From: Patescibacteria group bacterium
GTDB taxonomy: Bacteria; Patescibacteriota; Minisyncoccia; UBA6257; 02-FULL-45-10c
Assembly (NCBI GenBank): GCA_018896875.1
Contig: JAHILT010000032.1
Span: 1-60,897, forward strand
Direction: 5' to 3'
Length of the DNA: 60,897 nucleotides
A program made the position numbers and the translations under genes. Numbering within the stretch: position 1 is the first letter of the stretch; every line of letters starts with the position of its first letter. Shown here in pieces: positions 665 through 56,797 of the stretch. The notes under the pieces are model-generated. The model worked only from the letters and a program-made list of their open reading frames with translations, was not told the origin of the DNA and did not search any database.

Positions 665-3511
665 ATGTACAAACTAAAAACAATACTTTTCAGCACTATC
701 ATTGTCTTAACGCTAATGATAAGTACCACATTCGCCTGGACCAACCCATCCGCCAATCCTCCCGACGGCTCGGGGACTTTGACGGCTTCTACTACGAACA
801 TTGGCATCGGGACGACGAATCCGGGGTATAAATTAGATGTTAATGGAACATTGCGTGTATCAAGTTCGGCAACTTTTAGTGGGGCCTTTTCAGTTGGTGC
901 TGGTCTTTATGTAGGAACTGGCGGAGGGGGAATGTATATAAATACAATAGGTGCAAGAAGTGCTGGGGATGGTTTTACCATTCAAGGTAGAAGAACAGCA
1001 GCGAGTGGATTGCCTAGTGTCCGTATTATATCCGAGACTGGACTTAATAATGATGATATAGCAGTTCAAATTGGTGGTAATGCACCAGTTATGAATATAA
1101 TGCAAGGCGGCAACGTCGGCATCGCTTCCACTACTCCCTGGGGACTTCTATCTGTCAATCCAAACGGGATTACTGGCCCGGCGTTTGTCGTTGGTTCTTC
1201 CACGGTTACCAATTTGATTGTTACTAATGGCGGCAACGTCGGCATCGGGACGACGGCTCCAGCAGAAAAATTAACCTTGCCTTATGGGAATAAAATTGGG
1301 TTCACATTTAGTGATGCTAATTTAAATGTTTATAATAGTATTGGAAAACCAGCTACCGGAAATAGTCCTCTTACTTTTTCTGCTACTTATGCTCCTCCTA
1401 CTGCTGATGATATTTTTGATTTTAGAAATAATCTTGGATCTGTTATGGTAATAGAACAAAGTGGAGAAGTCGGCATCGGGACGACGGATCCAGATGGGAA
1501 ATTAACAGTTAATACCGGCGAAATCAGGATTAAAAATGCTGATACGTATGGATTATCATTTGATTACAGTTCCTGGACGCAGAATGCTCGCATCTGGTTA
1601 TCTGACACATTCCAATTGAATCTCGCTGGGCACACAGGAATTCAGATGTTTAGTAATCATTTAAACGGCGTCTGGACTCCTCGGTTTGCGATTGACATGA
1701 GCGGCAATGTCAGCTTGGGAAACGGCAAACTGTATGTGAAGGAATCTACTGCCAACGTCGGCATCGCTTCCACTACTCCTTGGGGACTTCTATCCGTCAA
1801 TCCAAACGGAATTACCGGCCCGGCGTTTGTCGTTGGTTCTTCCACGGTTACCAATTTGATTGTTACTAATGGCGGAAACGTCGGCATCGGGACGTCGGCT
1901 CCGAATAAATTATTACACTTAAAAACCGCCAGCGGTAACGCGGAATTAGATATTCAAAGTGTTGATAGTCCATATTGGGGTATTTATCAAGATGACACTA
2001 CTGATGATTTGCGTTTTTGGAATGTTGATAACAGAATGACTATCACTGATGCCGGCAATGTTGGGATTGGGACTGTAAGTCCGACCTCTCTCCTTGAGAT
2101 AGTTGGAGATGCATCATTAGATAGTTTTTCAACTAATACTAATGCTTTGCCAGCTATTCGAGATTCACACTCTTCAATCGTTGCTAATGGTTATATTTAT
2201 GTAATTGGAGGATACGATGACAGCAGTGCTGTGTCTACCGTTTACTACGCCGAACTTAACAGCGATGGCTCAACTGGAACTTGGTCTACTAATGCCAATG
2301 CTTTGCCAGTCGCTCTATATGGTCACTCCTCAGTCGTTGCTAATGGTTATGTTTATGTAATTGGAGGAGCTAATGTATCCACTGTCTATTACGCCAAGCT
2401 TAATAGCGATGGCTCAACTGGAACTTGGTCTACTAATACTAATGCTTTGCCTACTACTCGATATGTTCATTCTTCAGTCGTTGCTAATGGTTATGTTTAT
2501 GTAATCGGAGGTTATGATGGTACTAATTATCAATCCACTGTTTATTATGCTGAACTTAACAGCGACGGCTCAACTGGAACTTGGTCTACTAATGCCAATG
2601 CTTTACCAGCTATTGGAGGTAATCGTCCCGCAACAGTTTCTAATGGTTATGTTTATGTAACTGGAGGATGGGACAAAACTAATGTTTTATCCACCGTCTA
2701 TTACGCCAAGCTTAATAGCGATGGCTCAACTGGAACTTGGTCTACTAATGCCAATGCTTTGCCAGCTGCTCGAAGTAATCACTCCTCAGTTGTTGCTAAT
2801 GGTTATGTCTATATAATTGGAGGGGGTGATACTGGCGGTTATAGATCCACTGTTTATTATGCTGAACTTAACAGCGACGGCTCAACTGGAACTTGGTCTA
2901 CTAATGCCAATGCTTTGCCGGGAATTAGAGTTAGACATTCTTCAGTTGTTGCTAATGGTTATGTTTATGTAATTGGAGGAAATGATAGTTTTAATAATCA
3001 ATCAACTGTTTATTATGCTTCCACCGCCCGAATAAAATTCAAGGGAAATCTTGATTTGCTTGGGTTAACATCGTCTTCTCTTACCGATTCTCCAGGTGAC
3101 ACAGGTTCTTCTATTTTCGCTGGAAATATTTTTAGTAATAATACCTTAGAAGTTGGTGGTAATGCTCAATTTTGGAATGGAGTGGGGATTAATGGCAATT
3201 TAACTGTTAATGATGGACTCTCTGTTTCTGGAACCGTAGATATGTTTGGTGCGTGGGAAAGTAAATCAGCTGACACTTCTTATTTAGCAGAGTCTGATGG
3301 ATTTGTAGTTATACACACACTAGATAGTACTTCTAGCATTCTAACTGACAGCGCAAATCCTCCAACTATTGTAAGGGCATGGGTTGCTGGCGTAGTAACA
3401 GGCAATAGACGAGGTTCTGGAACGGTTCCTGTAAGAAAAGGGGATTATTGGAAGGTTGTAACTAATACAGGAACAGCGGCTACGATTTTTTGGATACCGT
3501 TAGGGCAATAA
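665..3511 (+). CDS. large secreted repeat protein: signal peptide, GNVGIGT(T/S)xP tail-fibre-like motifs, six Kelch-type repeats, C-terminal globular domain
   Basis: 948-aa ORF with hydrophobic N-terminus (LTLMISTTFA/WTNP). GNVGIG/GEVGIG motif occurs at least 5 times. Six copies of STVYYA(E/K)LNSDGSTGTWSTNANALP...HSSVVANGYVYVIGG. Confidence 0.88.
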   Translation: MYKLKTILFSTIIVLTLMISTTFAWTNPSANPPDGSGTLTASTTNIGIGTTNPGYKLDVNGTLRVSSSATFSGAFSVGAGLYVGTGGGGMYINTIGARSAGDGFTIQGRRTAASGLPSVRIISETGLNNDDIAVQIGGNAPVMNIMQGGNVGIASTTPWGLLSVNPNGITGPAFVVGSSTVTNLIVTNGGNVGIGTTAPAEKLTLPYGNKIGFTFSDANLNVYNSIGKPATGNSPLTFSATYAPPTADDIFDFRNNLGSVMVIEQSGEVGIGTTDPDGKLTVNTGEIRIKNADTYGLSFDYSSWTQNARIWLSDTFQLNLAGHTGIQMFSNHLNGVWTPRFAIDMSGNVSLGNGKLYVKESTANVGIASTTPWGLLSVNPNGITGPAFVVGSSTVTNLIVTNGGNVGIGTSAPNKLLHLKTASGNAELDIQSVDSPYWGIYQDDTTDDLRFWNVDNRMTITDAGNVGIGTVSPTSLLEIVGDASLDSFSTNTNALPAIRDSHSSIVANGYIYVIGGYDDSSAVSTVYYAELNSDGSTGTWSTNANALPVALYGHSSVVANGYVYVIGGANVSTVYYAKLNSDGSTGTWSTNTNALPTTRYVHSSVVANGYVYVIGGYDGTNYQSTVYYAELNSDGSTGTWSTNANALPAIGGNRPATVSNGYVYVTGGWDKTNVLSTVYYAKLNSDGSTGTWSTNANALPAARSNHSSVVANGYVYIIGGGDTGGYRSTVYYAELNSDGSTGTWSTNANALPGIRVRHSSVVANGYVYVIGGNDSFNNQSTVYYASTARIKFKGNLDLLGLTSSSLTDSPGDTGSSIFAGNIFSNNTLEVGGNAQFWNGVGINGNLTVNDGLSVSGTVDMFGAWESKSADTSYLAESDGFVVIHTLDSTSSILTDSANPPTIVRAWVAGVVTGNRRGSGTVPVRKGDYWKVVTNTGTAATIFWIPLGQ
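1109..1260 (+). repeat. intragenic duplication, copy 1 (about 150 bp)
   Basis: Near-identical to 1751-1902 (7 substitutions counted by eye). Encodes GNVGIASTTPWGLLSVNPNGITGPAFVVGSSTVTNLIVTNGGNVGIGT. Confidence 0.9.
1751..1902 (+). repeat. intragenic duplication, copy 2
   Basis: Offset of 642 bp (214 codons, in frame) from copy 1. Confidence 0.9.
2123..3020 (+). repeat. six tandem Kelch-type repeats of about 50 aa (predicted six-bladed beta-propeller)
   Basis: ANGY(V/I)Y(V/I)(I/T)GG occurs 6 times with conserved STVYYA.LNSDGSTGTWS linkers. Units are highly similar at the DNA level. Confidence 0.8.
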
Positions 3512-6409: not shown

Positions 6410-7747
6410 TTAGTTGTTAGTAAACAAAAACTTAATAGTTTTAAGCAAGATGCTTAAATCCAAAAAAGGAGAATTATTTTTAATGTAATAAATATCAAAT
6501 TGGGTTTTTTCGTATGCCTCTTCTACTGTGGCTCCGTAGCGAAAATTTATTTGCGCCCATCCAGTTATTCCAGGCTTAGTTAAATGACGCAATTCATAAT
6601 AAGGAATTTCTTTTTTTAATTCAGCTACAAACTCAGGCCTTTCTGGTCTTGGTCCTATAAAAGAAAGTTCACCTTTTAAAATATTGATTAGTTGTGGCAA
6701 TTCGTCTATATGAGATGTTCTTAAAAACTTTCCTATTTTAGTAGCGCGATTATCATTAAAATAATTTGCCCATTGTGGGCCGTTTTTTTCAGCGTCTATT
6801 TTCATAGTTCGGAATTTATATATAGTAAATTCTTTGCCGTTTTTACCAACTCTTTTTTGTTTGAATATAGCTGACCCTTTTGAAGATAATCTCACGACCA
6901 GAGTAATCAATAAGAGAAAAGGAGAAAGCGTAATTAACATTAATAGCGCTAAAATATATTCTAGTGGCGTAATTAAAATTTCATAAATTTTATGTTTTTT
7001 TGTGATGTTTTCTAAAAACCACACTTCTTCTAATTCGGTTAAAGGAACTTTTTTAAAAACTAATTCATAGAAATTAGCTAAGTCTATAACACCTATTCCT
7101 TCTAAAAGCATTTTATATATAAGACTAGAAGATTTGACGTCTTTCTTGATATACGAGGGAATAACTATAGTATTTATTTTATTTTCAGAAATTATTTGAT
7201 ATAAATCTTCAAGCTCTTTATCTTTTAGTCCATCTTTTATCCATGATTTTATTTCGTAACCTAACTGGTTATTGTTTTTTAGATAAGAAGTTATTTTTTG
7301 TATGATTTTGTTGTCTCCTATTAAAAGTATTTTATTTGCTGGATTACTTTTGCCAAGAATGATATTTACTGCTTGTCTATAAAAATATCCTATTCCGCTA
7401 AATATTATAAGGAAAATAAAAAGATTGGTTTTTGGAGCTACGTTAATATTAAGACTTAGGTAAAAGAAAATTGTTGCGGAGGTAGCGTTAAAAAGCATGG
7501 AATACCAGAATTTTTTATCAAAATCCAAATCGCTTTTGAGTGATTTAAAATCGTAAAGTCCAGCGATATAGAAAATTAAAATCCAAACAGCCAAAACTAT
7601 AGTAAAAGGTCCTACATGTGAATCAGTGAATTGTCCGTAAAATTCAGAACCATATCTTAGCCAAAGCGTTAGAAGTAGAGAAAGATAAAATATAGCGGTA
7701 TCGCCTAAGAAAATATTTATTTGTTTTATTTTTGAAAATGATTCCAT
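6410..7747 (-). CDS. polyprenyl-phosphate glycosyl-1-phosphate transferase (bacterial sugar transferase, WbaP/PglC-like)
   Basis: C-terminal domain with DELPQLINILKGELSFIGPRPERP. N-terminal TM segments and a central linker as in WbaP-type enzymes. Confidence 0.85.
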   Translation of the reverse strand: MESFSKIKQINIFLGDTAIFYLSLLLTLWLRYGSEFYGQFTDSHVGPFTIVLAVWILIFYIAGLYDFKSLKSDLDFDKKFWYSMLFNATSATIFFYLSLNINVAPKTNLFIFLIIFSGIGYFYRQAVNIILGKSNPANKILLIGDNKIIQKITSYLKNNNQLGYEIKSWIKDGLKDKELEDLYQIISENKINTIVIPSYIKKDVKSSSLIYKMLLEGIGVIDLANFYELVFKKVPLTELEEVWFLENITKKHKIYEILITPLEYILALLMLITLSPFLLLITLVVRLSSKGSAIFKQKRVGKNGKEFTIYKFRTMKIDAEKNGPQWANYFNDNRATKIGKFLRTSHIDELPQLINILKGELSFIGPRPERPEFVAELKKEIPYYELRHLTKPGITGWAQINFRYGATVEEAYEKTQFDIYYIKNNSPFLDLSILLKTIKFLFTNN

Positions 7748-7801
7748 GATAGTAAATGTAAAATGTTGGCAACTTCTAAATAAATATTTTTACAGAATTA
7801 A

Positions 7802-7985
7802 AACCTTGATTTTGACTAAGACCAAGGCTTGTTAACGAAAATGTATGAATATACTTTGAGGAAACATAACGAAGGGATTGGACAAAATCAAGGTTCTCTT
7901 TGAGTAAGAAAATTTTATTTAAGTTCTTCGTTGCTCCGCCTCGGCGTGGTAAAACCACGGCCTCGTTGTCGTGCCTAGAACTTAA
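7802..7985 (+). repeat. structured palindromic module, intergenic copy I (two inverted half-modules)
   Basis: Hairpin closed by AACCTTGATTTTG (7802-7814) / CAAAATCAAGGTT (7883-7895), containing a degenerate antisense core (7823-7876). Sense core 7919-7985 is homologous to 25325-25388 in the 23S. Confidence 0.7.
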
Positions 7986-8217
7986 TATAAAATTTTTCTT
8001 ATTAATTCGTGAAAACATTTGTTTAGAGGTTGCTTAATCAAATATCAAAATGACAATTCAAAATCCAAAATTGGATAATTTTAAAATTGATTTTGATTTG
8101 TATTCTATAGTATAGTATTATTATATAATTAAATTAAAATAAAGTCGTGGCAACAATAATTCAAAGTGTAAGTGTCTAAAATTTTACATTTTGATATTTA
8201 AATTTTAAATTTGAAAC

Positions 8218-8940
8218 ATGGATACCAATAATAACAATAATAAGAGCAATTATGTTTTATCGGCTAGTATTTTAATAGCGGCGGTTTTAATAGGCGGTTC
8301 GGTTATATATAGCAAGGGACTAGGTGTTTCTGGACAAGGCGAGGCGAACATAGGTTCAGTAATAGCTGGAAATCCTTTTGAGATACAAGAAAATGATATT
8401 GTTTTAGGAGAAGAGAATGCTCCGGTAACAGTTTTTATTTATTCTGATCCTTCTTGTCCATTTTGCGCTGCCGCAGCTGGAGGGAACGAAGAAGTTATGG
8501 ATTATCTTAAACAAGGAATGCCAGATTGGACACCTCCTATTCCAAATATAATTGATAATTATGTTGGCTCTGGTGATGTTAAATTAATTTATAGATATTT
8601 TCCAGGACATGGCAGTGGCAATGAAGCAATGGAAGTTTTGTATTGCTCTAATGAACAAGGCAAATTTTGGGAGCTTGATAAAATTTTAGCTAATAATCAA
8701 GAATCTTTGACAGATATTAATAAAATTAAAGAACTAGCTGTAAATATGGGAATTGATATTGATAAGATAGATAACTGTTTAGAGTTTGGAGAATATGATT
8801 CTAAAATGATTTATGATGCTGAAATGGGTAAAAAAGCAGGAGTTAATGGTACGCCAGCTTTCTTTGTTAATGAGACTCTTATAGAAGGAGCATATCCTTT
8901 TAGTGAATTTAAAACACTCATTGATTCAATGTTAAAATAA
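8218..8940 (+). CDS. membrane-anchored DsbA-family thiol:disulfide oxidoreductase
   Basis: N-terminal TM helix, thioredoxin-fold motif SCPFC, and C-terminal GVNGTPAFFVN typical of DsbA/thioredoxin_4 proteins. Confidence 0.8.
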   Translation: MDTNNNNNKSNYVLSASILIAAVLIGGSVIYSKGLGVSGQGEANIGSVIAGNPFEIQENDIVLGEENAPVTVFIYSDPSCPFCAAAAGGNEEVMDYLKQGMPDWTPPIPNIIDNYVGSGDVKLIYRYFPGHGSGNEAMEVLYCSNEQGKFWELDKILANNQESLTDINKIKELAVNMGIDIDKIDNCLEFGEYDSKMIYDAEMGKKAGVNGTPAFFVNETLIEGAYPFSEFKTLIDSMLK

Positions 8941-13289: not shown

Positions 13290-15749
13290 ATGAATTATAA
13301 AAATATTTTAAGTTTTTCAATATTAGCTTCAGCCATAATAATCTCTGGCGTTGTGGCGAGTTCAGCGTTGGCGCAAATAAATCCTTTTGATATTCAATTT
13401 CCGATAGAAGAATTAGGTAATTGTACGAGCATGGAAAATTGCAAAATTTATTGCGATAAGTCGCAAAATTCCGATGCTTGTTTTGCTTATGCTGAGAAAA
13501 ACAACTTAATGCCTAAAGAAGAAATAGAGATGGCTAAAAAGTTTAAAGATGTGGGAATGATTGGACCGGGAGGATGCAAGGGACAGACTGAATGTGATAA
13601 GTATTGTGACAACTCAAATAATATAGAGGAGTGTATGGCTTTTGCAATAGAGAATGGAATGATGGATACGAAAAAACAAGAAGAATCTAAAAAAATTTTA
13701 GCAGCGATTAAGAGAGGTGTAAAAATGCCAGCTTGTAATGGACAGAAAGAATGTGACGCGTATTGTTCAAGCTCGGAACATATGGAAGAATGTATGAATT
13801 TTTCTATTGAGGCTGGGATAATGGATCCACAAAAACTGGAAGAATCAAAGAAGGTTTTGGCGGCAATTAAGCGAGGTGTAAAAATGCCAGCTTGTAATGG
13901 ACAGAAAGAATGTGACGCGTATTGTTCAAGCTCGGAACATATGGAAGAATGTATGATTTTTACGTTGGAAGCTGGGCTTATGCCTGATGAAGACAAAGAA
14001 GGTGCGTCAAAAATGCTTACTGCTTTAAAAAAAGGAGTTAATCCTCCAGCATGTCGTGGAGAAAAAGAGTGTGATATTTATTGTTCTCAAGAAGAACATG
14101 TTGATGAATGTGTTAATTTTGCAGAAGCTGCTGGCTTTATGACTAAAGAAGAAGCTGAGATGACACGCAAAACAAGAGGCAGGGGTCCTGGTGGATGCAC
14201 TAACCCAGAAGAATGCGATGTTTTTTGTAGTAATCCTGATAACCAAGAAATTTGTTTTGAATTTGGCAAGGAAAACGGCATGATTTCAGAAAAAGATTTG
14301 GGAAGAATGGATGACGGCAGACAGAGAATGAAAGAATCTTTAGCTCAGGCTCCAGCGGAAATTATAAATTGTCTTAGTTCTAGTTTGGGCATAGCTACAT
14401 TGGAAAAATTAAAAGCAGGGACAGGTATGCTTACTCCAAAAACGGGCGAGGCGATGGATAAGTGTTTCAGACAATTTGCTCCTCAAGGAATGATGCCGGA
14501 TAGACAAGGAGAACCAGGAATGATTGGGGGAGAGATGCCCGCTGATCTTAAAGATTGCATTAGAGACCAAATTGGCGAAGATGGCTTAAATAAAATTCAA
14601 ATAGGACAAATGAATGACCCAGCTTTAATGGAAAAAGCTAGTCCATGTTTTGAAAAATTTGGGCAACAAGATCAACAAGGACAACCTGAACAGATGGGGA
14701 TATTTAATAAAGTAAAAGATTTCGGAAACAATGTAATTGATAGATTTAAGCCTGATGAGAAAGGTGGACAAGATCAACAGGGTCAGCCTGGGCAAATGGG
14801 AATGCCTGATTTTGAAAATATGCCAGCCGAGTTAAAAAGTTGCCTCGAATTAACTTTAGGGGCAGATATTATTGTTAAATTTAAAAACCAAGAAGTTAGA
14901 AATGAAGATATGGAGTTATTAATGGAAAAAGCAAAACCATGTTTTGAAAAGTTTGCTCCGTCGATGGAAGGTTCTCAAATGGAATTTCCTCAAAAAATTC
15001 AGACAGAAACAAGAATGATGGAAGAAGAAAGAACGCAGATGCAGATGAAGATAGAATCAATGCCTTCGCAAGGGACAATAACGTCTCAAGAAATGATAAT
15101 GTCTCAAGAAATGATTGATTGTTTAAGGGCCGAAGTAGGAGAAGAATTAGCTAATAAGATTAAAAGTGGCGCTTTTGAGCTTACTGCTGAAACAGGAGAA
15201 AAAGCTAAAAAATGTTTTGAAAAATTTGATATACGAGTAGATACTCCTCAAATGGATATTAGACAACAAGATAATCAAATTGCTCCTACTCAGCAAATAG
15301 ATATGATGAAAAACGAGGTAATGGAGAAAGAAATGTATGAAAAGAAAATGATGGAAGGAACACAAACGGAAATGATGAAGAATGAAGTGATGGAAAGAGA
15401 GATAATTATGGAGAAAAAAGAGATGAATATGGAAGGAGTATACAAGGCACAGGATGGAGGTGTTAATTTTAATACCGCAGAAGAGAAGGAAATGTATGAA
15501 AGAAAAATGACGGAAGGAATGCAGGACGGGACTATGCCTTATCAATATTCACCAACAGAAACGCAACAATTTGACCCTAATGCTCAGCCAATGGATATGA
15601 TACAGGATGGGACTATGCCTCCTTTATATCCAAATTCAACGGATATGCAACAATTTGATCCTAGTATTGAACCGCAGATAGCTCCTCCAGCACCAAGTAG
15701 TTTTTTAGAAAGGCTTATGGGGAATGTTTTGGGAATTTTGAGTAGATAA
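13290..15749 (+). CDS. secreted modular cysteine-patterned protein with a Met/Gln/Glu-rich C-terminal half
   Basis: Signal peptide (ASSALA/QI). Six modules C-x5,6-C-x3-C-x8-C, each followed by (F/M)A.E.G(M/I)M. Four modules C-x32-34-CF(E/R)(K/Q)F. Then Met-rich repeats. Confidence 0.85.
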   Translation: MNYKNILSFSILASAIIISGVVASSALAQINPFDIQFPIEELGNCTSMENCKIYCDKSQNSDACFAYAEKNNLMPKEEIEMAKKFKDVGMIGPGGCKGQTECDKYCDNSNNIEECMAFAIENGMMDTKKQEESKKILAAIKRGVKMPACNGQKECDAYCSSSEHMEECMNFSIEAGIMDPQKLEESKKVLAAIKRGVKMPACNGQKECDAYCSSSEHMEECMIFTLEAGLMPDEDKEGASKMLTALKKGVNPPACRGEKECDIYCSQEEHVDECVNFAEAAGFMTKEEAEMTRKTRGRGPGGCTNPEECDVFCSNPDNQEICFEFGKENGMISEKDLGRMDDGRQRMKESLAQAPAEIINCLSSSLGIATLEKLKAGTGMLTPKTGEAMDKCFRQFAPQGMMPDRQGEPGMIGGEMPADLKDCIRDQIGEDGLNKIQIGQMNDPALMEKASPCFEKFGQQDQQGQPEQMGIFNKVKDFGNNVIDRFKPDEKGGQDQQGQPGQMGMPDFENMPAELKSCLELTLGADIIVKFKNQEVRNEDMELLMEKAKPCFEKFAPSMEGSQMEFPQKIQTETRMMEEERTQMQMKIESMPSQGTITSQEMIMSQEMIDCLRAEVGEELANKIKSGAFELTAETGEKAKKCFEKFDIRVDTPQMDIRQQDNQIAPTQQIDMMKNEVMEKEMYEKKMMEGTQTEMMKNEVMEREIIMEKKEMNMEGVYKAQDGGVNFNTAEEKEMYERKMTEGMQDGTMPYQYSPTETQQFDPNAQPMDMIQDGTMPPLYPNSTDMQQFDPSIEPQIAPPAPSSFLERLMGNVLGILSR
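13716..13797 (+). repeat. 82-bp exact intragenic duplication, copy 1
   Basis: Identical to 13875-13956 (offset 159 bp, 53 codons). Encodes GVKMPACNGQKECDAYCSSSEHMEECM. Confidence 0.9.
13875..13956 (+). repeat. 82-bp exact intragenic duplication, copy 2
   Basis: See 13716-13797. Confidence 0.9.
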
Positions 15750-18218: not shown

Positions 18219-19013
18219 ATGTATAAAAGAAAACAAAAAACTTCTTGGGGAGAATCAGCTGAGTGGTATTCTGATTTATTGGAAAATGAAAAAAAAACAT
18301 ATCAAAGAGACTTGATTCTTCCTAATCTTCTTCGTCTTATGGATATTAAAAAAGCAGATATGGTTTTAGATTTGGCTTGTGGTCAAGGATTTTTTAGTCG
18401 TGAATTTTCCAATGTTGGTGCGAATGTAATTGGTGTTGACGTTTCTAAGGAACTTATAAATTTAGCAGAAAAAATTGAAAAAAATTCTTTAATAAAATAT
18501 AAGGTTTCGTCAGCAGATAATTTAAATTTTATAGTAGAAGATAGTATTGATAAAATAGTTATTATTTTAGCCATTCAGAATATTGAAAATGTTTCAGGAG
18601 TTTTTAAAGAATGTAGGAGGGTATTAAAATCAAAGGGAAAATTATTTATAGTTATTAATCATCCGTCCTTTAGAGTGCCTAAACAAAGTAGTTGGGAATG
18701 GGACGCAGAAAAGAATATCCAATATAGAAGGATTGATGGATATCTTTCTGAGTCAAGAGTTAAAATTCAAATGCATCCTGGTGATAAGCCGAAAGAAAGC
18801 ACTACTTCTTTCCACAGGCCACTTCAGTTTTATTCTAAAGCTTTAAGAAAAAATAATTTTGCTATAACGAAACTTGAAGAATGGAATTCTACTAAAAAAA
18901 GTCAGCCTGGACCTAGAGCTAAGGCGGAGAACATAGCAAGAAAAGAAATTCCTATGTTTATGTTTTTAGAAGTAAGAACCTATCTTGATAATAATCCTCA
19001 AACGCGTTGCTAA
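18219..19013 (+). CDS. class I SAM-dependent methyltransferase
   Basis: Motif I VLDLACGQGFFS. The last roughly 12 codons are encoded by the left arm of the repeat at 18974-19010, so the native C-terminus is uncertain. Confidence 0.8.
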   Translation: MYKRKQKTSWGESAEWYSDLLENEKKTYQRDLILPNLLRLMDIKKADMVLDLACGQGFFSREFSNVGANVIGVDVSKELINLAEKIEKNSLIKYKVSSADNLNFIVEDSIDKIVIILAIQNIENVSGVFKECRRVLKSKGKLFIVINHPSFRVPKQSSWEWDAEKNIQYRRIDGYLSESRVKIQMHPGDKPKESTTSFHRPLQFYSKALRKNNFAITKLEEWNSTKKSQPGPRAKAENIARKEIPMFMFLEVRTYLDNNPQTRC

Positions 19014-19247
19014 GATAAGTTGAAAATTTCAAGGCTTGCTGACGAGCTAGTGGTGTATACCACAGCGAGGAAGCATAACACAGAAATTTTCAATCTTAGA
19101 TAGCAACCCTTCGGGATACTGCAAGTTTTGTTTATAACTGTGTCGCTCGTCGGAAATATAGCTAAAGCTATAAATTTCCTCCTCGCTCCTTGTTCTGGAC
19201 AAAGTTGGCAAGTATCGCGTTAGGAATTACTATTAAGATAGGTTCTT
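18974..19247 (-). repeat. structured palindromic module, intergenic copy III (core on the minus strand) inside a 37-nt inverted repeat
   Basis: Arms 18974-19010 and 19208-19247 (first 13 nt perfect). Core 19021-19092 (minus sense) is homologous to 25325-25388. Partner half-module at 19138-19192. Confidence 0.7.
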
Positions 19248-19265: not shown

Positions 19266-19700
19266 ATGAAAATAAAAATACAAAAAATAAATGAAGAAGC
19301 TATTATCCCTTTTTATGCCCATAAGGGCGATGCAGGTATGGATATTTTTTCTATTGAAGAAAAAATAATCAAACCAAAAGAAAGAGTATTAATTTCTACT
19401 GGATTAAAATTTGAGATTCCGATTGGATACGAAATGCAAATACGTCCTAAGTCTGGTCTAGCTTTAAACTATGGAATAACTGTTTTGAATACTCCTGGCA
19501 CGATAGATGCTGGATATAGAGGCGAACTAAAAGTTATTTTATTTAATTCTTCTAGAGAAGACTATCTTGTCAGCAAAGGAACTAAAGTTGCTCAAGCTAT
19601 TATCGCTAAAGTTGAAGAAGCCGAAATTGAGGAAGTTGAAGATATTTGTGAAAGCTCTAGAGGGGATGGTGGGTTTGGCTCTACGGGATTAGTTAAGTAA
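19266..19700 (+). CDS. dut: dUTP diphosphatase
   Basis: GDAGMD, GTIDAGYRGE and C-terminal RGDGGFGSTG motifs. Confidence 0.95.
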   Translation: MKIKIQKINEEAIIPFYAHKGDAGMDIFSIEEKIIKPKERVLISTGLKFEIPIGYEMQIRPKSGLALNYGITVLNTPGTIDAGYRGELKVILFNSSREDYLVSKGTKVAQAIIAKVEEAEIEEVEDICESSRGDGGFGSTGLVK

Positions 19701-23984: not shown

Positions 23985-24228
23985 AGACGTTTCTTTATTG
24001 AAACGATAAATTAAGGGCGTATGGTGGATGCCTTGGCATCAAAAGGCGATGAAGGACGTGGTGTAGCTGCGATAAGCTTCGGGGAGGTGTTTAGCAACCT
24101 TTGATCCGGAGATTTCCGAATGGGGTAACCTAATTGCGTAAACCGCAATTGCTTTATTTCGTAAGAAATAGAGAGCGTATCCGCTGAAGTGAAACATCTC
24201 AGTAAGCGGGAGAATAAAAAACAATAGT

Positions 24229-24260
<32 letters not shown>

Positions 24261-24691
24261 GAGCCCAAACTTGAAGAGAAATTATTAAAATCCGAAATTT
24301 GTGATTCGAAATTAAATTTGATGATCTGTTCGGTCGTTTTAGTAGTCAATTTTTGAGGGTTGTAAGATAGAAACTTTTTCAAAATCATCGAATAGCGAAC
24401 AAAGTTTAGTTAGCTATTCGTTGATTTCGAGAGGAGAGTTACAAAATTAATTTTTAATTGAATCTGCTGGAAAGCGGAACCATAGAGAGTGATAGTCTCG
24501 TAAATAAAAAAAATTAATCTTTCTGTTTCTACCGGTTTATTAAATATCTTCGGATATTTAATAAAAAATCCGGCGAACCAGCAAGGAGAGCTAAATTAGT
24601 TTTTCTTGCTGGTTCTATCTTGAGTACTGCGAGGCCAATAAACCTTGCAGGAAGCAACGAGTACTAATCTCGTGAGGCTAAATACTTTTGA

Positions 24692-24732
<41 letters not shown>

Positions 24733-25171
24733 CAGCCCGGCGAGGGCGTTGAAATAGTACCTGAAACCATATGCTTACAAGGACTCGAAGCCTAAAATGT
24801 ATTCCGCACACAATTAATAACAAGCGGTTGTTTTTTGTGTGCGGAATATATGTGGGTAACGTGGTGCCTATTGAAGAATGAGCCAACGACTTTATGTAAA
24901 TGGCAGGCTAACCTGGTAGAAACGGGGGAGCCATAGGGAAACCGAGTGTTAATAGCGCGAACGTCTCGCAAGAGACAATGTCTTTTATGTAAGACCCGAA
25001 GCCAAGCGAGCTTGCCCTGGACAGGATGAGCCCTGACTAAACATCAGGAGGAGGTCCGAACTAGTAGATCGTGCAACATCTTTAGATGATCTGGGGTAAG
25101 AAGTGAAAAGCTAATCGAGCTTGGTGATAGCTGGTTCTCTCCGAAACAGTTTTTGGACTGGCGGCAACTCA

Positions 25172-25438
25172 GTGACCTTTGAATAAATCCAACGATTATT
25201 GGCCAGAAAGATTTTTTATTCTGGCTAGACGCAAGAAGTGATGTGTGTCTTTAGACACATGAGCGACGAGCAACAACGCTAGAATAAAAAAGATTCTGGC
25301 TCGCAGAGAAACTCAAAATTAAACGAGTTCTGCGTTGCTTCTCCTCAGCGTGGTATAAACCACAGCTTCGTCGTCGCGTCTTAAACTCATTTTAATTTAT
25401 GAGTTTCCAATATATCGCTGTATTTATTCAGAGGTCAC
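25172..25438 (+). repeat. roughly 250-nt helix-tip insertion in 23S domain II carrying the structured palindromic module
   Basis: Base stem GTGACCTTTGAATAAAT...ATTTATTCAGAGGTCAC just 5' of the conserved GGGGGTAGAGCACTG. Contains antisense half 25228-25279 and sense core 25325-25388. Confidence 0.8.
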
Positions 25439-27235
25439 GTAAGTTTTTTGGGGGTAGAGCACTGGATGGTTGACACAGGACGAAAGTCCGGTCGACCAAT
25501 CAAACTCCGAATACCAAAAAATATAGTTGCTAGTTAGACTGCGGGGGCAAAGCTCCGTGGTCGCAAGGGAAAAAGCCCAGATCGCCATCTAAGGTCCCCA
25601 AATTCTTGCTAAGTGTGAAAGGTAGTAATTAGCCATAGACAGATAGTAGGTTGGCTTAGAGGTAGCCATCCTTTAAAGAGTGTGTAACAACTCACTATTC
25701 GAATCCTTTTTTATTAAAGGATTGGTTAGTTGCGCCCAAAATTTACCGGGGCTAAGCAAGATACCGAAGATGCGAATTATCTTATTTTTAATAAGGTAGT
25801 GGTAGGAGAGCATTTCTATCTGCTGTGAAGCCGTACCCGTGAGGGGCGGTGGAGCGATGGGAAGAGAGAATGTTGGCATGAGTAATCCCAAATTGGGTGA
25901 GAAACCCAATCCCCGTAAATCCTAGGTTTCCGTGGCAATGGCAATCAACCACGGGTTAGGCGATCCTAAGGTCATGGCGAAAGCCGCAGCTGAAGGGAAA
26001 GATAGTTAATATTCTATCCCCTCTGGATAGTGCGATGGAGGGACGGAGGAAATAAGGTTGTGCGCCTTAATGGTTTGGCGTCACTGGTTTTAAGAAACGG
26101 CTTCTAGGCAAATCCGGAAGTCTGCTTTTAATAGCAAGTTTCGTAAATTGGAGTAAGGTTAAGTATTTACTTGACTAATACAATCGAATAGCCTCCCAAG
26201 AAAAACTTCTAAGGGTAATTTATTACTAAGCTATTTAGAGATCGTACCGTAAACCGACACAGGTGGATGAGGCGAGCAGCCTCAGGGGAACGAGTGAGTC
26301 TTCGTTAAGGAACTCGGCAAAAAAGCGGCCGTAAGTTCGCAATAAGGCCTGCCCTTCGTAAGAAGGGCCGCAGCTAAAGTATCTCTGGCGACTGTTTACC
26401 AAAAACACAGCTCCCTGCTAACTCGTAAGAGGATGTATAGGGGGTGACGCCTGACCGATGCGAGAAGGTTAACGGTGGGGGTGATATGCAGCAATGTGTA
26501 TTACTCACTACCCGAAGCCCTCGTCAATGTCGGCGGTAACTATAACCGTCCAAAGGTAGCGCAATTCCTTTTCAGGTAAGTTCTGAAGCGCATGAAAGGC
26601 GTAACGATCGGAGAACTGTCTCAACGAAGAGCTCGATGAAAATGCGATTCCCGTGAAGACGCGGGATACCTGCAGCAAGACGAAAAGACCCTAGGAGCTT
26701 TACTGTGTGTTGGTATTGATTTTAAGTATTTGATGCGTAGCGTATTGGGTAGGATTTGAAGTTTCACTTTCGGGTGGAATGGATCCGCCGATGAAACACC
26801 CATCTTCAAGTTTTTAAAGTCTAACCGATTAGGAATCTGGGATTTTCCCGGTAAGCCTAATTGAGACAGTGCCTGCTGGACAGTTTAAATGGGGCATTTT
26901 CCTCCTAAAGAGTAATGGAGGAGTTTATTAAGGTTGGCTTAGCCCGGATGGAAATCGGGCTGGACGCGTAAAGGCAAAAGCCAGCTTGACTGCAAGACTT
27001 ACAAGTCGCGCAGGCGCGAAAGCGGAACTTAGCGACCCGACAGCACTTTATAGAAAGGCTGGAGACAACGGATAAAAGTTACCCTAGGGACAACAGGCTA
27101 GTATCGTCCGAGAGTCCTTATCGACGACGATGCTCGGCACCTCGATGTCGGCTCGCCCTAGCGCGGGGCTGAAGAAGGTCCCAAGCGTATGGCTGTTCGC
27201 CATTTAAAAGGGCACGCGAGCTGGGTTCAAACCGT

Positions 27236-27491
27236 TGATGCGCTAATCATATAATATGATTAGATTGGCGTATGAACGGTTTGAGTCCGAGGAGCAAGAC
27301 ATCATTCACGGCGCTCATAAGAAGTAATTCTTATGAACCAAGTTAACTAATATCGGTGAAACCCTATAAGTGTGGGGTAATACCGAGGGAATTCTATTTT
27401 TATAGAAGCCCGTAGAGACTATACGTTAACCTCCTTATTAAAATAAGGATGAAGATATAGTCCAATGCACGTAGTAATACGTGGAAACATG
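27236..27491 (+). ncRNA. ORF-less group I intron candidate (256 nt) in the 23S
   Basis: Interrupts GGGTTCAAACCGT|CGTGAGACAGGTTGG. Follows a U and ends in G. Internal ACGGTTTG (27276-27283) complements the exon CAAACCGT (27228-27235). GNRA-capped hairpin at 27316-27335. Confidence 0.65.
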
Positions 27492-27837
27492 CGTGAGACA
27501 GGTTGGTCTCTACCTGCTGTAGGCGTTAGTCTGAAAAAGACTTATAAACACTTGAAGGAAGTCGATCCTAGTACGAGAGGACCGGATTGAACGAGCCTCT
27601 GGTCTACCAGCTTTGTTACCAAATGAAGCGCTGGGTAGCTATTGCTCGGAAGGGATAAGAGCTGAAAGCATCTAAGCACGAAGCCCCTCCAAAGACTATG
27701 TGTTAGGTCCGTAGAAGACTACTACGTTGATAGGCCACAAATGTACGCACAGTAATGTGTTTAGTTGAGTGGTACTAATAGACCGATTTTCTTTTATACA
27801 AGGTTTCATACCATTGAAGTTTTGTATAAGAGATTTT

Positions 27838-27863: not shown

Positions 27864-27912
27864 AGGGATAATTCTATATTAATATATTATTAAAACCCCA
27901 CGAATTTTTTGT

Positions 27913-28034
27913 TTAGCTGGTATTTTATTTGAACGTGACCCACCTTTTCCCATTCCGAACAGAGAAGTGAAAGCGTTCAAAACTGATGATATTGCCCTAA
28001 TTTGTTGGGTGAGAAAGTAGGTTATGCCGGTTAT
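27913..28034 (+). rRNA. rrf: 5S rRNA
   Basis: CCCACCTTTTCCCATTCCGAACAGAGAAGTGAAAGCG core. Flanked by a 17-bp processing stem (27896-27912 with 28035-28051), then T6. Confidence 0.9.
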
Positions 28035-28103
28035 ACAAAAAATTTGTGGGGTTTTTTAATTTCCGAAAAAAACTTTTTTTGTTTATAATAAGACTAGAGA
28101 TAA

Positions 28104-28237
28104 ATCCCCCACATAACAAAGACTAATAAAATATAAATTTAGATATTACAAAAAAAATAATGAACAAGTCGCAAAAAAACAACTTAACAACATTGGCTAT
28201 AAAAGCTTTGCTTTTGGGTCTTTGTTATGTGGGGGAT
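28104..28237 (+). mobile_element. start-codon-abutting inverted-repeat element, copy 1 (134 bp)
   Basis: ATCCCCCACATAACAAAGAC (28104-28123) against GTCTTTGTTATGTGGGGGAT (28218-28237). The right arm overlaps the ATG at 28236. Confidence 0.6.
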
Positions 28238-30156: not shown

Positions 30157-30520
30157 CTGTCATCTCCGCTCCTTCTGTCATTCTCGCGGAAGCGGGAATC
30201 CAATTCTTTCTTATCCTCCTTATTCCCTCCTTTTAAAGGAGGGCCAGGGTGGATTTTCTCTTCTTCCTTCGTCGTAGGTTGTAAGTCATTTGTCGTAAGT
30301 CAATGCTTTATCAGCATTCCACCAAAACCCTCAAGCAATTTGGTAGATATAGCGACAATCCCTCTTCTTTCATCATCCCCAGAACCATCTTCTTAATCCA
30401 ACCCCTCTTTCTCCCTCTCTGTCATTCCCGTTTTCTTCTTTTATCCCCTCATTCTTTTTTCTTCGTCGTTAGTTGTTTGTCGTCGGTCGTTAGTCAGCAT
30501 GGCGGGAATCCAGTCTTTCT
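30157..30520. repeat. mosaic hairpin island A
   Basis: Modules GTCATTC(T/C)CGCGGA(A/G)GCGGGAATCC (30157-30210), TTATTCCCTCCTTTTAAAGGAGGG..GGGTGGATTTT (30219-30260) and CCACCAAAACCCTCAAGCAATTTGGT (30316-30352). A split copy lies at 30418-30520. Confidence 0.8.
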
Positions 30521-32004: not shown

Positions 32005-32448
32005 ATGAACGAAAAAATTAATACTCAGCCAGTAGCAGAAGATAAAATGGCCGAAAAAAATGAAAAAATTAAAACTCCGCAACAAATAGAAAGAGAGAGA
32101 AGAGAAGAAAAAAAGCAACTTCTTGAAGAACTAACCCAAAATGGCGGAGCATTAGAACACGCTTCCGAAAGATTACAAAACGACAAAGAAGTTGTTATGG
32201 AAGCAGTAAAACAAAAGGGTTGGATGTTAAAATATGCTTCTGAAGAATTACAAGATGATAAAGAAGTTGTTATGATAGCAGTTACGCAAAATGGTGAGGT
32301 ATTTAAATTTGCTTCCGAAAGATTACAAAACGACAAAGAAGTTGCTAAAGCAGCAGTTACGCAAAGAGGTTGGGTATTACAATACCTTCCAAAAGAACTA
32401 CAAAAAGATCCTGAAATAATTGCAGCATCCGAAGCATCAGAAAAATAA
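32005..32448 (+). CDS. DUF4116 repeat protein
   Basis: Repeats of LQ(N/D)DKEVV..AV.Q.GW.L(K/Q)YA(S)EEL typical of DUF4116. Confidence 0.7.
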   Translation: MNEKINTQPVAEDKMAEKNEKIKTPQQIERERREEKKQLLEELTQNGGALEHASERLQNDKEVVMEAVKQKGWMLKYASEELQDDKEVVMIAVTQNGEVFKFASERLQNDKEVAKAAVTQRGWVLQYLPKELQKDPEIIAASEASEK

Positions 32449-36368: not shown

Positions 36369-36501
36369 ATCCCACACATAACAAAGACTGATAATATATA
36401 AATATTTAAATGTTATAAAATTAATGAATAAGTCGCAAAAAAATAATTTAACAATATTGATCACAAAAGCTTTGCTTTTGGGTCTTTGTTATGTGTGGGA
36501 T
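36369..36501 (+). mobile_element. start-codon-abutting inverted-repeat element, copy 2 (133 bp), between rpoB and rpoC
   Basis: ATCCCACACATAACAAAGAC (36369-36388) against GTCTTTGTTATGTGTGGGAT (36482-36501), perfect 20-bp arms. ATGAAT at 36365-36370 and again at 36500-36505. Confidence 0.65.
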
Positions 36502-51331: not shown

Positions 51332-51694
51332 TAGTTAGCCACTAGCCATTAGAAGTGTAAAATTTAAAAATCAAAAATCAAAATGACAATGCAAAAATAT
51401 AAAATATAAGAATTAATTCAGAAACAGTAATCTCATTTTTTGTTCTAACTTTTGGATTTTTTATCCCCCTCCTTTAGGAGGGGTTAGGGGAGATTTTCCC
51501 CTCCGTCATTGCGAGGTTCGCCAGCAGGCGAACCGCGGCAATCTCTCTATCGTTTCCTTTTTTTCTGTCATCTCCGCTCCTTCTGTCATTCCCGCGGAGG
51601 CGGGAATCCAGTCTTTCCCATCTTTCTTATTCCCTCCTTTTAAAGGAGGGCTAGGGCATGCCCCCTTACTCATCCTTGAGTGTGGGGGTGGATT
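51332..51694. repeat. mosaic island D: roughly 140-bp AT-rich unit plus four GC-rich hairpin modules
   Basis: 51332-51470 is homologous to 55573-55705. 51505-51695 is nearly identical to 56610-56797 apart from an indel in the first hairpin. Confidence 0.85.
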
Positions 51695-51804
51695 TAAATT
51701 ATAAAGACAACGAAGGCGTCAGAATAATAACGAAACAAAAATAAGCTAACCCTTGTTTTATAAGTGAAATTAGGAAAGTTTCTTAATTAATTTATTCATG
51801 TTTG

Positions 51805-56609: not shown

Positions 56610-56797
56610 TTTTTCTCTATCATTGCGCTTTGCCCGCGGCAATCTCTCTATCGTTTCCTTTTTTTCTGTCATCTCCGCTCCTTCTGTCATTCCCGCGGAG
56701 GCGGGAATCCAGTCTTCCCCATCTTTCTTATTCCCTCCTTTTAAAGGAGGGCTAGGGCATGCCCCCTTACTCATCCTTGAGTGTGGGGGTGGATTTT
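56610..56797. repeat. mosaic hairpin island F
   Basis: Same module order as 51505-51695 (CATTGCG...CGGCAATCTC; GTCATTCCCGCGGAGGCGGGAATCC; long TTATTCCCTCC...GGTGGATTTT). Confidence 0.85.

Follow-up and report, generated by a model that had tools for sequence, protein, structure and literature searches.

A palindromic insertion in a Patescibacteria 23S rRNA gene belongs to a dispersed family of structured, apparently mobile elements

The 23S rRNA gene on contig JAHILT010000032.1 of a Patescibacteria group bacterium (assembly GCA_018896875.1) is interrupted by an insertion of some 270 nt, and a preliminary description made from the sequence alone had noticed that a structured core of this insertion recurs in two intergenic regions of the same DNA. 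The locus therefore raises the question of what kind of sequence lives both between protein-coding genes and inside a ribosomal RNA, and whether it is best regarded as mobile DNA, as a functional RNA domain or as something else. We refer to the whole stretch analyzed, positions 1 to 60,897 of the contig on the forward strand, as the window, and to the 23S insertion as element A. In our judgment the insertion probably belongs to a family of non-coding, dyad-symmetric mobile palindromes of about 265-295 bp that are non-autonomous and structure-dependent, that resemble MITEs (miniature transposable elements with inverted repeats) and REPINs, and that act in the manner of an intervening sequence (IVS) when they sit in 23S.

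The window 23S is 3797 nt long, compared with a large-subunit (LSU) model of 2925 positions, and is followed by a 5S gene per the Rfam search. The Rfam LSU alignment leaves out 284 nt between model positions 864 and 879 (14 model positions), where element A is located. The insertion is closed by the inverted repeat GTGACCTTTGAATAAAT (25172-25188) and ATTTATTCAGAGGTCAC (25422-25438), with GGGGGTAGAGCACTG directly 3′ of it, and the same boundaries were reproduced by blastn against a related 23S without an insertion at this site (site 1). The existence of the insertion, its closing repeat and its position 5′ of GGGGGTAGAGCACTG were thus as first described. Its placement at the tip of a helix is wrong according to the rrlH and Rfam alignments. 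The window 23S was aligned to Escherichia coli rrlH for position numbering, and on that numbering CAGUUUUUGGACUG corresponds to what we take to be the H37 hairpin (E. coli 822-835), while GCAACU and UUUUUUGG presumably form two 5′-strand segments of lower H38. These two segments pair with AGUUGC and CCAAAAAA downstream, as seen in the Rfam alignment and in the sequence. Since GCAACU and UUUUUUGG are separate segments of H38, the insertion branches from the internal loop between them; element A is a lateral branch on the 5′ side of H38, close to the helix base (E. coli ~845-849), and the result is a three-way junction.

A whole-element profile hidden Markov model found exactly three copies of the ~270-nt element in the window and no other locus. 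In addition to element A, which belongs to the subfamily we call WA, these are element B (type II subfamily), located between the divergent genes 6410-7747(-) and 8218-8940(+), and element C (type I subfamily), located between a methyltransferase open reading frame (ORF) at 18219-19013(+) and the dUTPase gene at 19266-19700(+) and antisense to both. The three are mutually only 43-52% identical. A covariance model, R1, made from 31 distinct cores and used on the window with filters off, retrieved the three cores with E-values of about 1e-21, and otherwise only three half-modules reached an E-value of 0.1. When the window was shuffled 100 times, a degenerate pattern derived from the three cores was never matched. 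The recurrence of the core at 7919-7985(+) and 19021-19092(-) is accordingly confirmed (80.9-83.8 bits), as are the antisense-like half-modules reported upstream of each core, which R1 matches as reverse complements (51.7, 42.1 and 26.1 bits).

Every full copy follows one four-helix plan, consisting of an outer stem (P1), arm 1, a mini-hairpin and arm 2. P1 is a terminal inverted repeat of 17-30 bp that is present in every full copy and encloses both arms, and its terminal bases covary instead of being conserved in sequence. Arm 1 consists of a lower stem of 12-25 bp, a module with purine-rich strands (consensus CAAGGCGCGAGGAGGAAA ... UUUCCGACGAGCAACGAAG; in element A, AGACGCAAGAAG..hairpin..GAGCGACGAGCAAC on the + strand) and a variable apical hairpin. 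The mini-hairpin between the arms has 3-4 bp (CCC-GAA-GGG, CUC-GCA-GAG, CTC-TTT-GAG and similar). Arm 2 has a lower stem followed by the conserved core, a module of ~72 nt made up of CUUCGUUGCUCCUCCUC, a 3-bp helix with a bulge, GUGGU-loop-ACCAC and CUCGUCGUCGCGCCUUG. In arm 1 the same module is present inverted and degenerate, and the reverse complement of arm 1 matches R1 in all three window copies. We would like to note that arm 1 has two purine tracts, 5′-strand GAGGAGG and 3′-strand GACGAG (alignment A1, columns 84-94 and 113-124), which are swapped relative to a simple inverted copy in most subfamilies and in unswapped order in type II copies; no inversion or simple rearrangement was found that accounts for the swapped order.

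Covariation across the full element was assessed on a MAFFT alignment of 33 distinct elements with an RNAalifold consensus. The local fold pairs in 93.0% of cells compared with 68.7% in shuffles (none of 500 reached it; slid controls gave 35-42%), double-change cells number 357 compared with 119 in shuffles (0/500), and 35 of 42 pairs show compensatory change. The core alone is 90% paired, against 72% in shuffles (0/500). The covarying 3-bp helix, the one-nucleotide bulge, the GUGGU/ACCAC stem and the closing stems that differ in sequence and are all paired, which had been described from three loci, hold in 31-33 copies, and two copies have compensatory changes in the GUGGU/ACCAC stem itself, which is invariant in the others (GUGGA/UCCAC and GUGCC/GGCAC). 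Element A folds with a z-score of -10.5 as sense RNA and -9.0 as antisense DNA. Selection on RNA or DNA secondary structure, as had been proposed, is thus strongly supported by covariation.

The tracts flanking the core hairpin had been regarded as shared and single-stranded. They are not fully unpaired: the nominally single-stranded tracts show a three-base periodicity of isolated C-G pairs, covarying or invariant. In arm 1 these are the covarying C-G/G-C pairs 84:124, 87:121 and 90:118 with tandem G.A/A.G mismatches between them, and arm 2 has equivalent C-G pairs (21:54 and 24:51 in A2) with tandem U.C/C.U mismatches between them. Either strand consequently reads P1, purine-mismatch arm, mini-hairpin, pyrimidine-mismatch arm and P1′, and this dyad design therefore gives the same kind of architecture from either strand.

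The unit had also been called a long palindrome able to form either two hairpins or one extended duplex. The two hairpins stand, as the local-fold pairing above attests. The extended duplex between the modules, and likewise a kissing or paranemic pairing, was rejected as a conserved structure for want of covariation. Inter-module complementarity does pair 80% of cells, and slid controls only 37-58%. Even so, the observed pairing is reached in 463 of 500 shuffles and the observed double changes in 472 of 500, double changes being less numerous than the shuffles give. The modules are complementary strand for strand because one is an inverted duplicate of the other, not because a helix is maintained between them.

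Relatives outside the window were sought by scanning for the pattern in GTDB, with each species represented by one genome, and, separately, with a metagenome scan. The former yielded 61 loci, 13 of them true copies in nine species representatives, all of which are Patescibacteria (candidate phyla radiation, CPR) metagenome-assembled genomes (MAGs): Harrisonbacteria, Paceibacterota, Parcubacteria, two labelled Saccharibacteria and one unclassified. The other GTDB matches, from high-GC organisms such as Nocardia and Kiloniellaceae, were dismissed as coincidences within coding sequence. The metagenome scan yielded 31 loci, 30 of them true and mostly from groundwater or sediment. Profile searches of the fetched loci, which we denote by L numbers, added copies that the pattern had missed, among them the two with compensatory changes in the GUGGU/ACCAC stem, bringing the total outside the window to about 45. 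Phage carriage was considered and rejected, the sole match on a viral contig being a high-GC chance match. Element B is 91-92% identical to L072 and 86-88% identical to L062, and element C is 86% identical to a copy in L083. Subfamilies are 76-91% identical between genomes, while coding DNA of the same genomes is 65-78% identical, and old diverged copies within one genome are also found in the Harrisonbacteria MAG, L062 and L063. No Rfam family matched any copy at gathering thresholds, or at relaxed E-values of up to 1-5 over the elements, and our literature search retrieved no description of the family. The covariance-model scan and Rfam comparison that the preliminary description had suggested thus gave further homologues, significant covariation and no matching Rfam family or described IVS class. 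The family is undescribed and, as far as sampled, restricted to CPR/Patescibacteria.

In either orientation, the element relocates as a unit within and between genomes, and it enters 23S as well as intergenic spacers. Two loci, L071 (with complete 23S and 5S genes) and L067 (from an independent data set), carry a copy of element A elsewhere in 23S, between coordinates 2218 and 2223 of the window 23S, i.e. after E. coli 1589. Their 23S is contiguous across site 1, and the window 23S is in turn empty at their site (site 2, Table 1). By blastn, element A is 88% identical to L071 5867-6133, and the rRNA flanking the L071/L067 element is 82-93% identical to the window, so that element and rRNA show a similar degree of divergence. 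The two 23S copies are both inserted in sense. At a non-rRNA locus, the Harrisonbacteria MAG has a third WA copy (86% identical; L055 6742-6999).

The two 23S placements also bear on whether the resemblance between rRNA insertion and intergenic repeats could be fortuitous, or an artifact of faulty assembly in which an intergenic repeat was wrongly joined into the rRNA gene. Metagenome assemblies can be broken or mis-joined at repeats, and exact-protein look-ups for strain polymorphism retrieved one short Logan contig (L095) that ends inside element C (they retrieved no record for the neighbour of element B). Nevertheless, the insertion is flanked to the left and right by rRNA sequence in its proper order, L067 and L071, from data sets independent of each other, both show the alternative 23S placement, and E-values of ~1e-21 argue against chance. 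We regard both explanations as extremely improbable.

The intergenic copies likewise occupy different places in related genomes. In L046, the spacer orthologous to that of element B lacks the element. In L062, the rpoB-rpoC spacer is filled by a type II copy 87.5% identical to element B, whose P1 supplies the last codons and the stop codon of rpoB, whereas an unrelated repeat occupies this spacer in the window; at another place, L062 again has a copy and the window a different sequence. A type I copy in L031 lies in a region syntenic with element C in inverted orientation, and a type I copy in L046 adjoins tRNA-Gln, a locus different from that of element C. Two direct copies of 277 nt, 96% identical and 5530 nt apart, bracket four or five ordinary-looking ORFs (L069 3562-3838 and 9092-9368; L090 4904-5240 and 10438-10734), with their differences mostly in outermost P1. 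Altered copies were also found: truncated copies with one arm (L010 2543-2697 and L055 3046-3205), one whose arm 2 is turned around with respect to P1 and arm 1 (L061 181-470 and L088 5487-5775), and one with a 30-nt hairpin nested between the module's GUUG and CUCCUCCUC (L070 738-1056 and L086 3623-3965). The suggestion that this is a mobile, IVS-like element able to reside in rRNA therefore gains support from the second 23S site, the reciprocal empty sites, the filled and empty intergenic spacers, the 96% identical pair and the altered copies.

Table 1. Coordinates of the elements, their parts and the host gene within the window.
Feature	Coordinates	Strand	Basis and remarks
23S rRNA gene, host of element A	24001-27797	+	Rfam RF02541, 2061 bits, model positions 1-2925
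Element A (WA subfamily), 267-nt insertion in 23S	25172-25438	+	blastn; nhmmer 174.6 bits; E. coli ~845-849
Element A outer stem P1, 5′ strand	25172-25202	+	17 bp plus ~13 bp with 25407-25438; sequence and fold
Element A outer stem P1, 3′ strand	25407-25438	+	sequence and fold
Element A arm 1, degenerate inverted module	25216-25287	-	R1, 26.1 bits, E 1.6e-4
Element A central mini-hairpin CTC-GCA-GAG	25300-25308	+	position kept in all copies
Element A arm 2 core module	25321-25392	+	R1, 82.7 bits, E 4.7e-21
Element A P3/P4 hairpin AGCGTGGTATAAACCACAGCT, within arm 2 core	25347-25367	+	
Element B (type II subfamily)	7768-8033	+	nhmmer 212 bits
Element B arm 1, inverted module	7814-7883	-	R1, 51.7 bits, E 5e-12
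Element B arm 2 core module	7917-7987	+	R1, 80.9 bits
Element C (type I subfamily)	18974-19247	-	nhmmer 216 bits
Element C arm 2 core module	19021-19092	-	R1, 83.8 bits
Element C arm 1, inverted module	19129-19201	+	R1, 42.1 bits, E 3e-9
Empty site 2 in window 23S, GGGTAATTTATTACTAAG	26213-26230	+	small hairpin GTAAT-TT-ATTAC; E. coli ~1589

We then considered whether the element behaves as a product of one strand. Copies between co-directional genes are oriented roughly 50:50 (about 8-10 co-directional with the genes and 9-10 antisense), and many intergenic copies occupy the whole spacer, often touching stop or start codons. The minimum free energy (MFE) of the sense strand is the lower one in 20 of 35 copies, the consensus energies are -24.5 for sense and -31.6 for antisense, and G-T outnumbers A-C by only 64 to 54 on the union of pairs from both strands, which is no strand asymmetry. 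A strand-specific RNA was rejected on these grounds, as neither the MFE values nor the numbers of G-T and A-C nor the consensus folds of the two strands lean consistently to the sense side, and a cis-regulatory leader was rejected due to the random orientation relative to neighbours and the unrelated contexts. Nothing convincing as an own promoter or terminator flanks B or C, and no conserved ORF was found in the element. Type II copies, which are ~70% identical, do have a stop-free antisense frame of 79-89 codons (window 7776-8018(-), L072, L018, L062, L015, L041, L043 and L085). Its coding potential was rejected: substitutions by codon position are 457:548:591, with 220 synonymous versus 845 non-synonymous codons, a non-coding pattern, and the frame does not encode a conserved protein. 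The even orientation, symmetric folding and lack of a promoter or ORF therefore favour a non-autonomous DNA element, for which the fold formed by either strand would be decisive, over a strand-specific RNA gene or a cis-regulator.

The same results weigh on the suggestion, already made in the preliminary description, of an RNA module bound by a common factor. Under such an explanation the family would be a functional structured RNA, or an RNA domain recognized by a common protein with the module, its periodic 2x2 mismatch loops and GUGGU hairpin included, as its putative binding platform; the paralogous subfamilies would be retained as such, and the rRNA copy would display the domain as an expansion segment or express it as a piece released by processing. 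The very strong covariation and the invariant loop nucleotides suit this explanation, as do the 76-91% identity of subfamilies between genomes, comparable to that of 23S (82-93%), the few copies of distinct types in each genome, the sense orientation of both 23S insertions and the dyad design that offers the same kind of architecture from either strand. Tandem G.A motifs flanked by C-G pairs, such as those of arm 1, are moreover classic protein- or RNA-docking motifs. However, some 50% of intergenic copies run antisense to their operon in spacers so full that there is no room for signals of their own, B and C lack a dedicated flanking promoter or terminator, and G-U is not favoured over A-C. 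Truncated and rearranged copies also persist, and ordinary RNA genes do not enter rpoB-rpoC spacers or shift between 23S sites. On balance, mixed orientation and the missing G-U asymmetry disfavour the RNA explanation, and we consider it unlikely.

The tight intergenic packing could instead be read as the mark of a host-domesticated, orientation-independent RNA-processing or insulator cassette, a long double-stranded hairpin that provides RNase III sites or protects 3′ ends, the rRNA copy then being an ordinary IVS excised by RNase III. Roles of this kind between genes, in RNase III cleavage or 3′ end protection, have been proposed for REP/BIME, ERIC and Correia elements. Copies do lie tight between genes, often touching stop or start codons and including the rpoB-rpoC spacer, the fold is equally stable in either orientation, and the ~30-bp closing stem would, by analogy, fit an RNase III substrate. 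Yet a mere processing hairpin has no need for invariant loops or the GUGGU hairpin, and related genomes lack the element at the same spacers. We find a domesticated cassette quite improbable.

A non-autonomous mobile palindrome is the reading that we prefer, and it invites comparison with known systems. REPINs (REP doublets) and BIMEs of Proteobacteria, which are mobilized by RAYT tyrosine/HUH transposases, are similar in that they are non-coding pairs of inverted hairpin units with a spacer, are intergenic in either orientation, keep their structure by compensatory change, and form long-lived, mostly vertical lineages with no encoded transposase. The REPIN family is defined by a unit of 20-40 nt, one end of which bears an unpaired tag, GTAG or CGTC (PMC3733652). 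The present element differs in that its unit of ~72 nt stands on a further stem of 12-25 bp, the whole amounting to ~270 nt, without an unpaired terminal GTAG or CGTC tag. Its two units are very unequally conserved, an extra long terminal inverted repeat surrounds the pair, copy number is low and the host phylum is Patescibacteria.

Bacterial MITEs with structured transcripts, such as the Correia elements of Neisseria, ERIC of enterobacteria, RUP/BOX of pneumococci and the palindromic elements of Rickettsia are also small, non-autonomous palindromes with terminal inverted repeats, with insertion polymorphism between relatives and co-transcription with neighbouring genes. The Rickettsia palindromic elements are tolerated inside genes, analogous to our element inside rRNA. 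Small non-coding multicopy dispersal, terminal inverted repeats and filled and empty sites are all found here. No consistent target-site duplication was seen in the diverged genomes compared, nor any cognate insertion sequence among 40 window and 108 neighbouring ORFs. In contrast to MITEs, the termini covary while conservation lies in the interior, and the subfamilies are old, evolve slowly and have had no recent bursts.

The IVSs of 23S in Salmonella, Campylobacter, Leptospira, Coxiella and others resemble the rRNA copy as extra stem-loop domains that interrupt a 23S helix region, are patchy among relatives, have a long basal duplex suited to RNase III and are suspected of horizontal mobility. 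Element A is likewise extra sequence that is absent from that site in L071, and P1 provides a basal duplex. It does not use the canonical sites in H25 or H45, the family being found at the H38 base (E. coli ~845-849) and in domain III (~1589), it has no S23p ORF, and unlike classical IVSs the same family is also intergenic and occupies two 23S sites. For CPR bacteria, Tsurumaki et al. 2024 left the ORF-less, non-intron insertions of rRNA genes uncharacterized (PMC11270868), and about half of CPR 23S insertions are neither introns nor ORF-bearing (PMC11270868). Element A falls in this category, with a CPR host, a length of at least 100 bp and neither a group I/II intron nor an ORF. That survey (PMC11270868) defined no sequence families or genome-wide relatives, and the element supplies one such family together with an origin, namely a dispersed repeat.

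If the family is mobile in this way, the element would be non-autonomous and mobilized in trans by an enzyme not encoded nearby, by analogy with REPIN/RAYT pairs, IS200/IS605 ends and attC sites. By the same analogies, the form that is recognized or selected would probably be a folded single strand or cruciform and not a linear duplex site, because the stems drift with pairing kept to the termini while the mismatched bubbles are invariant. In 23S, the element would be co-transcribed with pre-23S and fold into a self-contained domain closed by the ~30-bp stem, projecting from the internal loop at the H38 base or, in the relative, from a hairpin tip in domain III. A self-contained domain projecting from such sites could explain why the ribosome appears to tolerate the insertion. 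The transcribed insertion may then be cut at its closing stem by RNase III, by analogy with a classical IVS, or be kept as an expansion segment.

Several results weigh against this interpretation. Neither a duplication of the target site nor a target shared by the copies could be defined, the compared genomes being too diverged for exact junctions. No transposase, integrase, reverse transcriptase or HUH gene was found among the 40 window ORFs, which are of ordinary housekeeping kinds, or among the 108 ORFs adjoining copies elsewhere. The latter likewise contain no recurring neighbour family, and no RAYT was seen in the 61-kb window or in the fragments of up to 14.5 kb that this search of gene neighbours covered. 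The copy number is modest (three per 61 kb), and subfamilies that have diverged to 43-52% within a genome while each keeps 76-91% between genomes look less like the outcome of a recent MITE burst than like paralogous genes under conservation. Conservation is far stronger in one module than in the inverted other, an inequality that a model of symmetric transposase sites does not predict; the conserved part is internal and the termini covary, which fits a simple MITE poorly; and the sense orientation of both rRNA insertions is a weak hint of constraint at the RNA level. These misfits to a simple MITE keep alive a functional RNA, or selection for the element's own propagation machinery, and our confidence in the mobile palindrome is therefore moderate.

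A bolder form of the mobile-element interpretation, which we put forward tentatively as a doubtful but possible one, is that the family represents a previously unrecognized, CPR-specific class of mobile elements defined by structure. The conserved module, a helix with C-G pairs at every third position, tandem 2x2 mismatches (G.A on one strand, U.C on the other) and a GUGGU-loop cap, would then be the putative recognition site of an enzyme acting on folded single strands, or, in a variant of the proposal, the module would move via an RNA intermediate able to integrate into rRNA. If true, the rRNA insertions and expansion segments that are unusually frequent in CPR bacteria would have a general source in such a class.

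In CPR bacteria, the genes for rRNA are notably crowded with insertions, and one of these is now tied to a dispersed genomic repeat family. That mobile DNA gives rise to IVSs is an old idea, and the two 23S positions in related organisms are direct evidence that at least some rRNA IVSs or expansion segments arise from mobile palindromic DNA. The covariation-supported fold of ~270 nt with its periodic mismatch motifs, together with the search model, permits a census of CPR genomes, and both the mobilizing agent and the question of ribosomal carriage versus excision become directly testable.

The window 23S holds further insertions. A group I intron (Rfam RF00028, 68.9 bits, 27293-27484) lies in an insertion at 27236-27491, after E. 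coli 2593, and is separate from element A; in L071 this site is occupied by an insertion of 739 nt that presumably includes an ORF for a homing endonuclease. Five other insertions relative to E. coli are found at 24286-24450 (165 nt, after 288), 24561-24610 (50 nt, after 388), 24637-24666 (30 nt, after 414), 24800-24851 (52 nt, after 548) and 25706-25726 (21 nt, after 1114), none of which is matched by the element's covariance model. The one after 548 is at the classical H25 IVS site and has 164 nt in L071. Downstream, a 32-nt inverted repeat, 84% complementary, flanks the 5S gene (27892-27923 and 28024-28055) and is probably a processing stem.

A second, unrelated family of palindromic intergenic repeats, ATCCC(A/C)CACATAACAAAGAC ... 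GTCTTTGTTATGTG(T/G)GGGAT, is present in the window at 28104-28237, 36369-36501 and 40518-40725, i.e. in the spacer after 5S, the rpoB-rpoC spacer (filled by a type II copy in L062) and the S6-SSB spacer. Repeats of ~52 nt with the hairpin CCCTCCTTTTAAAGGAGGG followed by (C/T)TAGGG are located at 30219, 31637, 47961, 51626, 55261 and 56727; they are partly embedded in a 163-nt repeat whose two copies are 99% identical (51533-51695 and 56634-56796), and may be another mobile or terminator-like element. Long in-frame tandem repeats are also found within three coding sequences, at 2076-3143 (156-nt units, in a Kelch-repeat protein encoded at 665-3511), at 13575-14051 (159-nt units, in an 819-aa protein without a Pfam match) and at 32127-32409 (75-nt units, in a DUF4116 protein).

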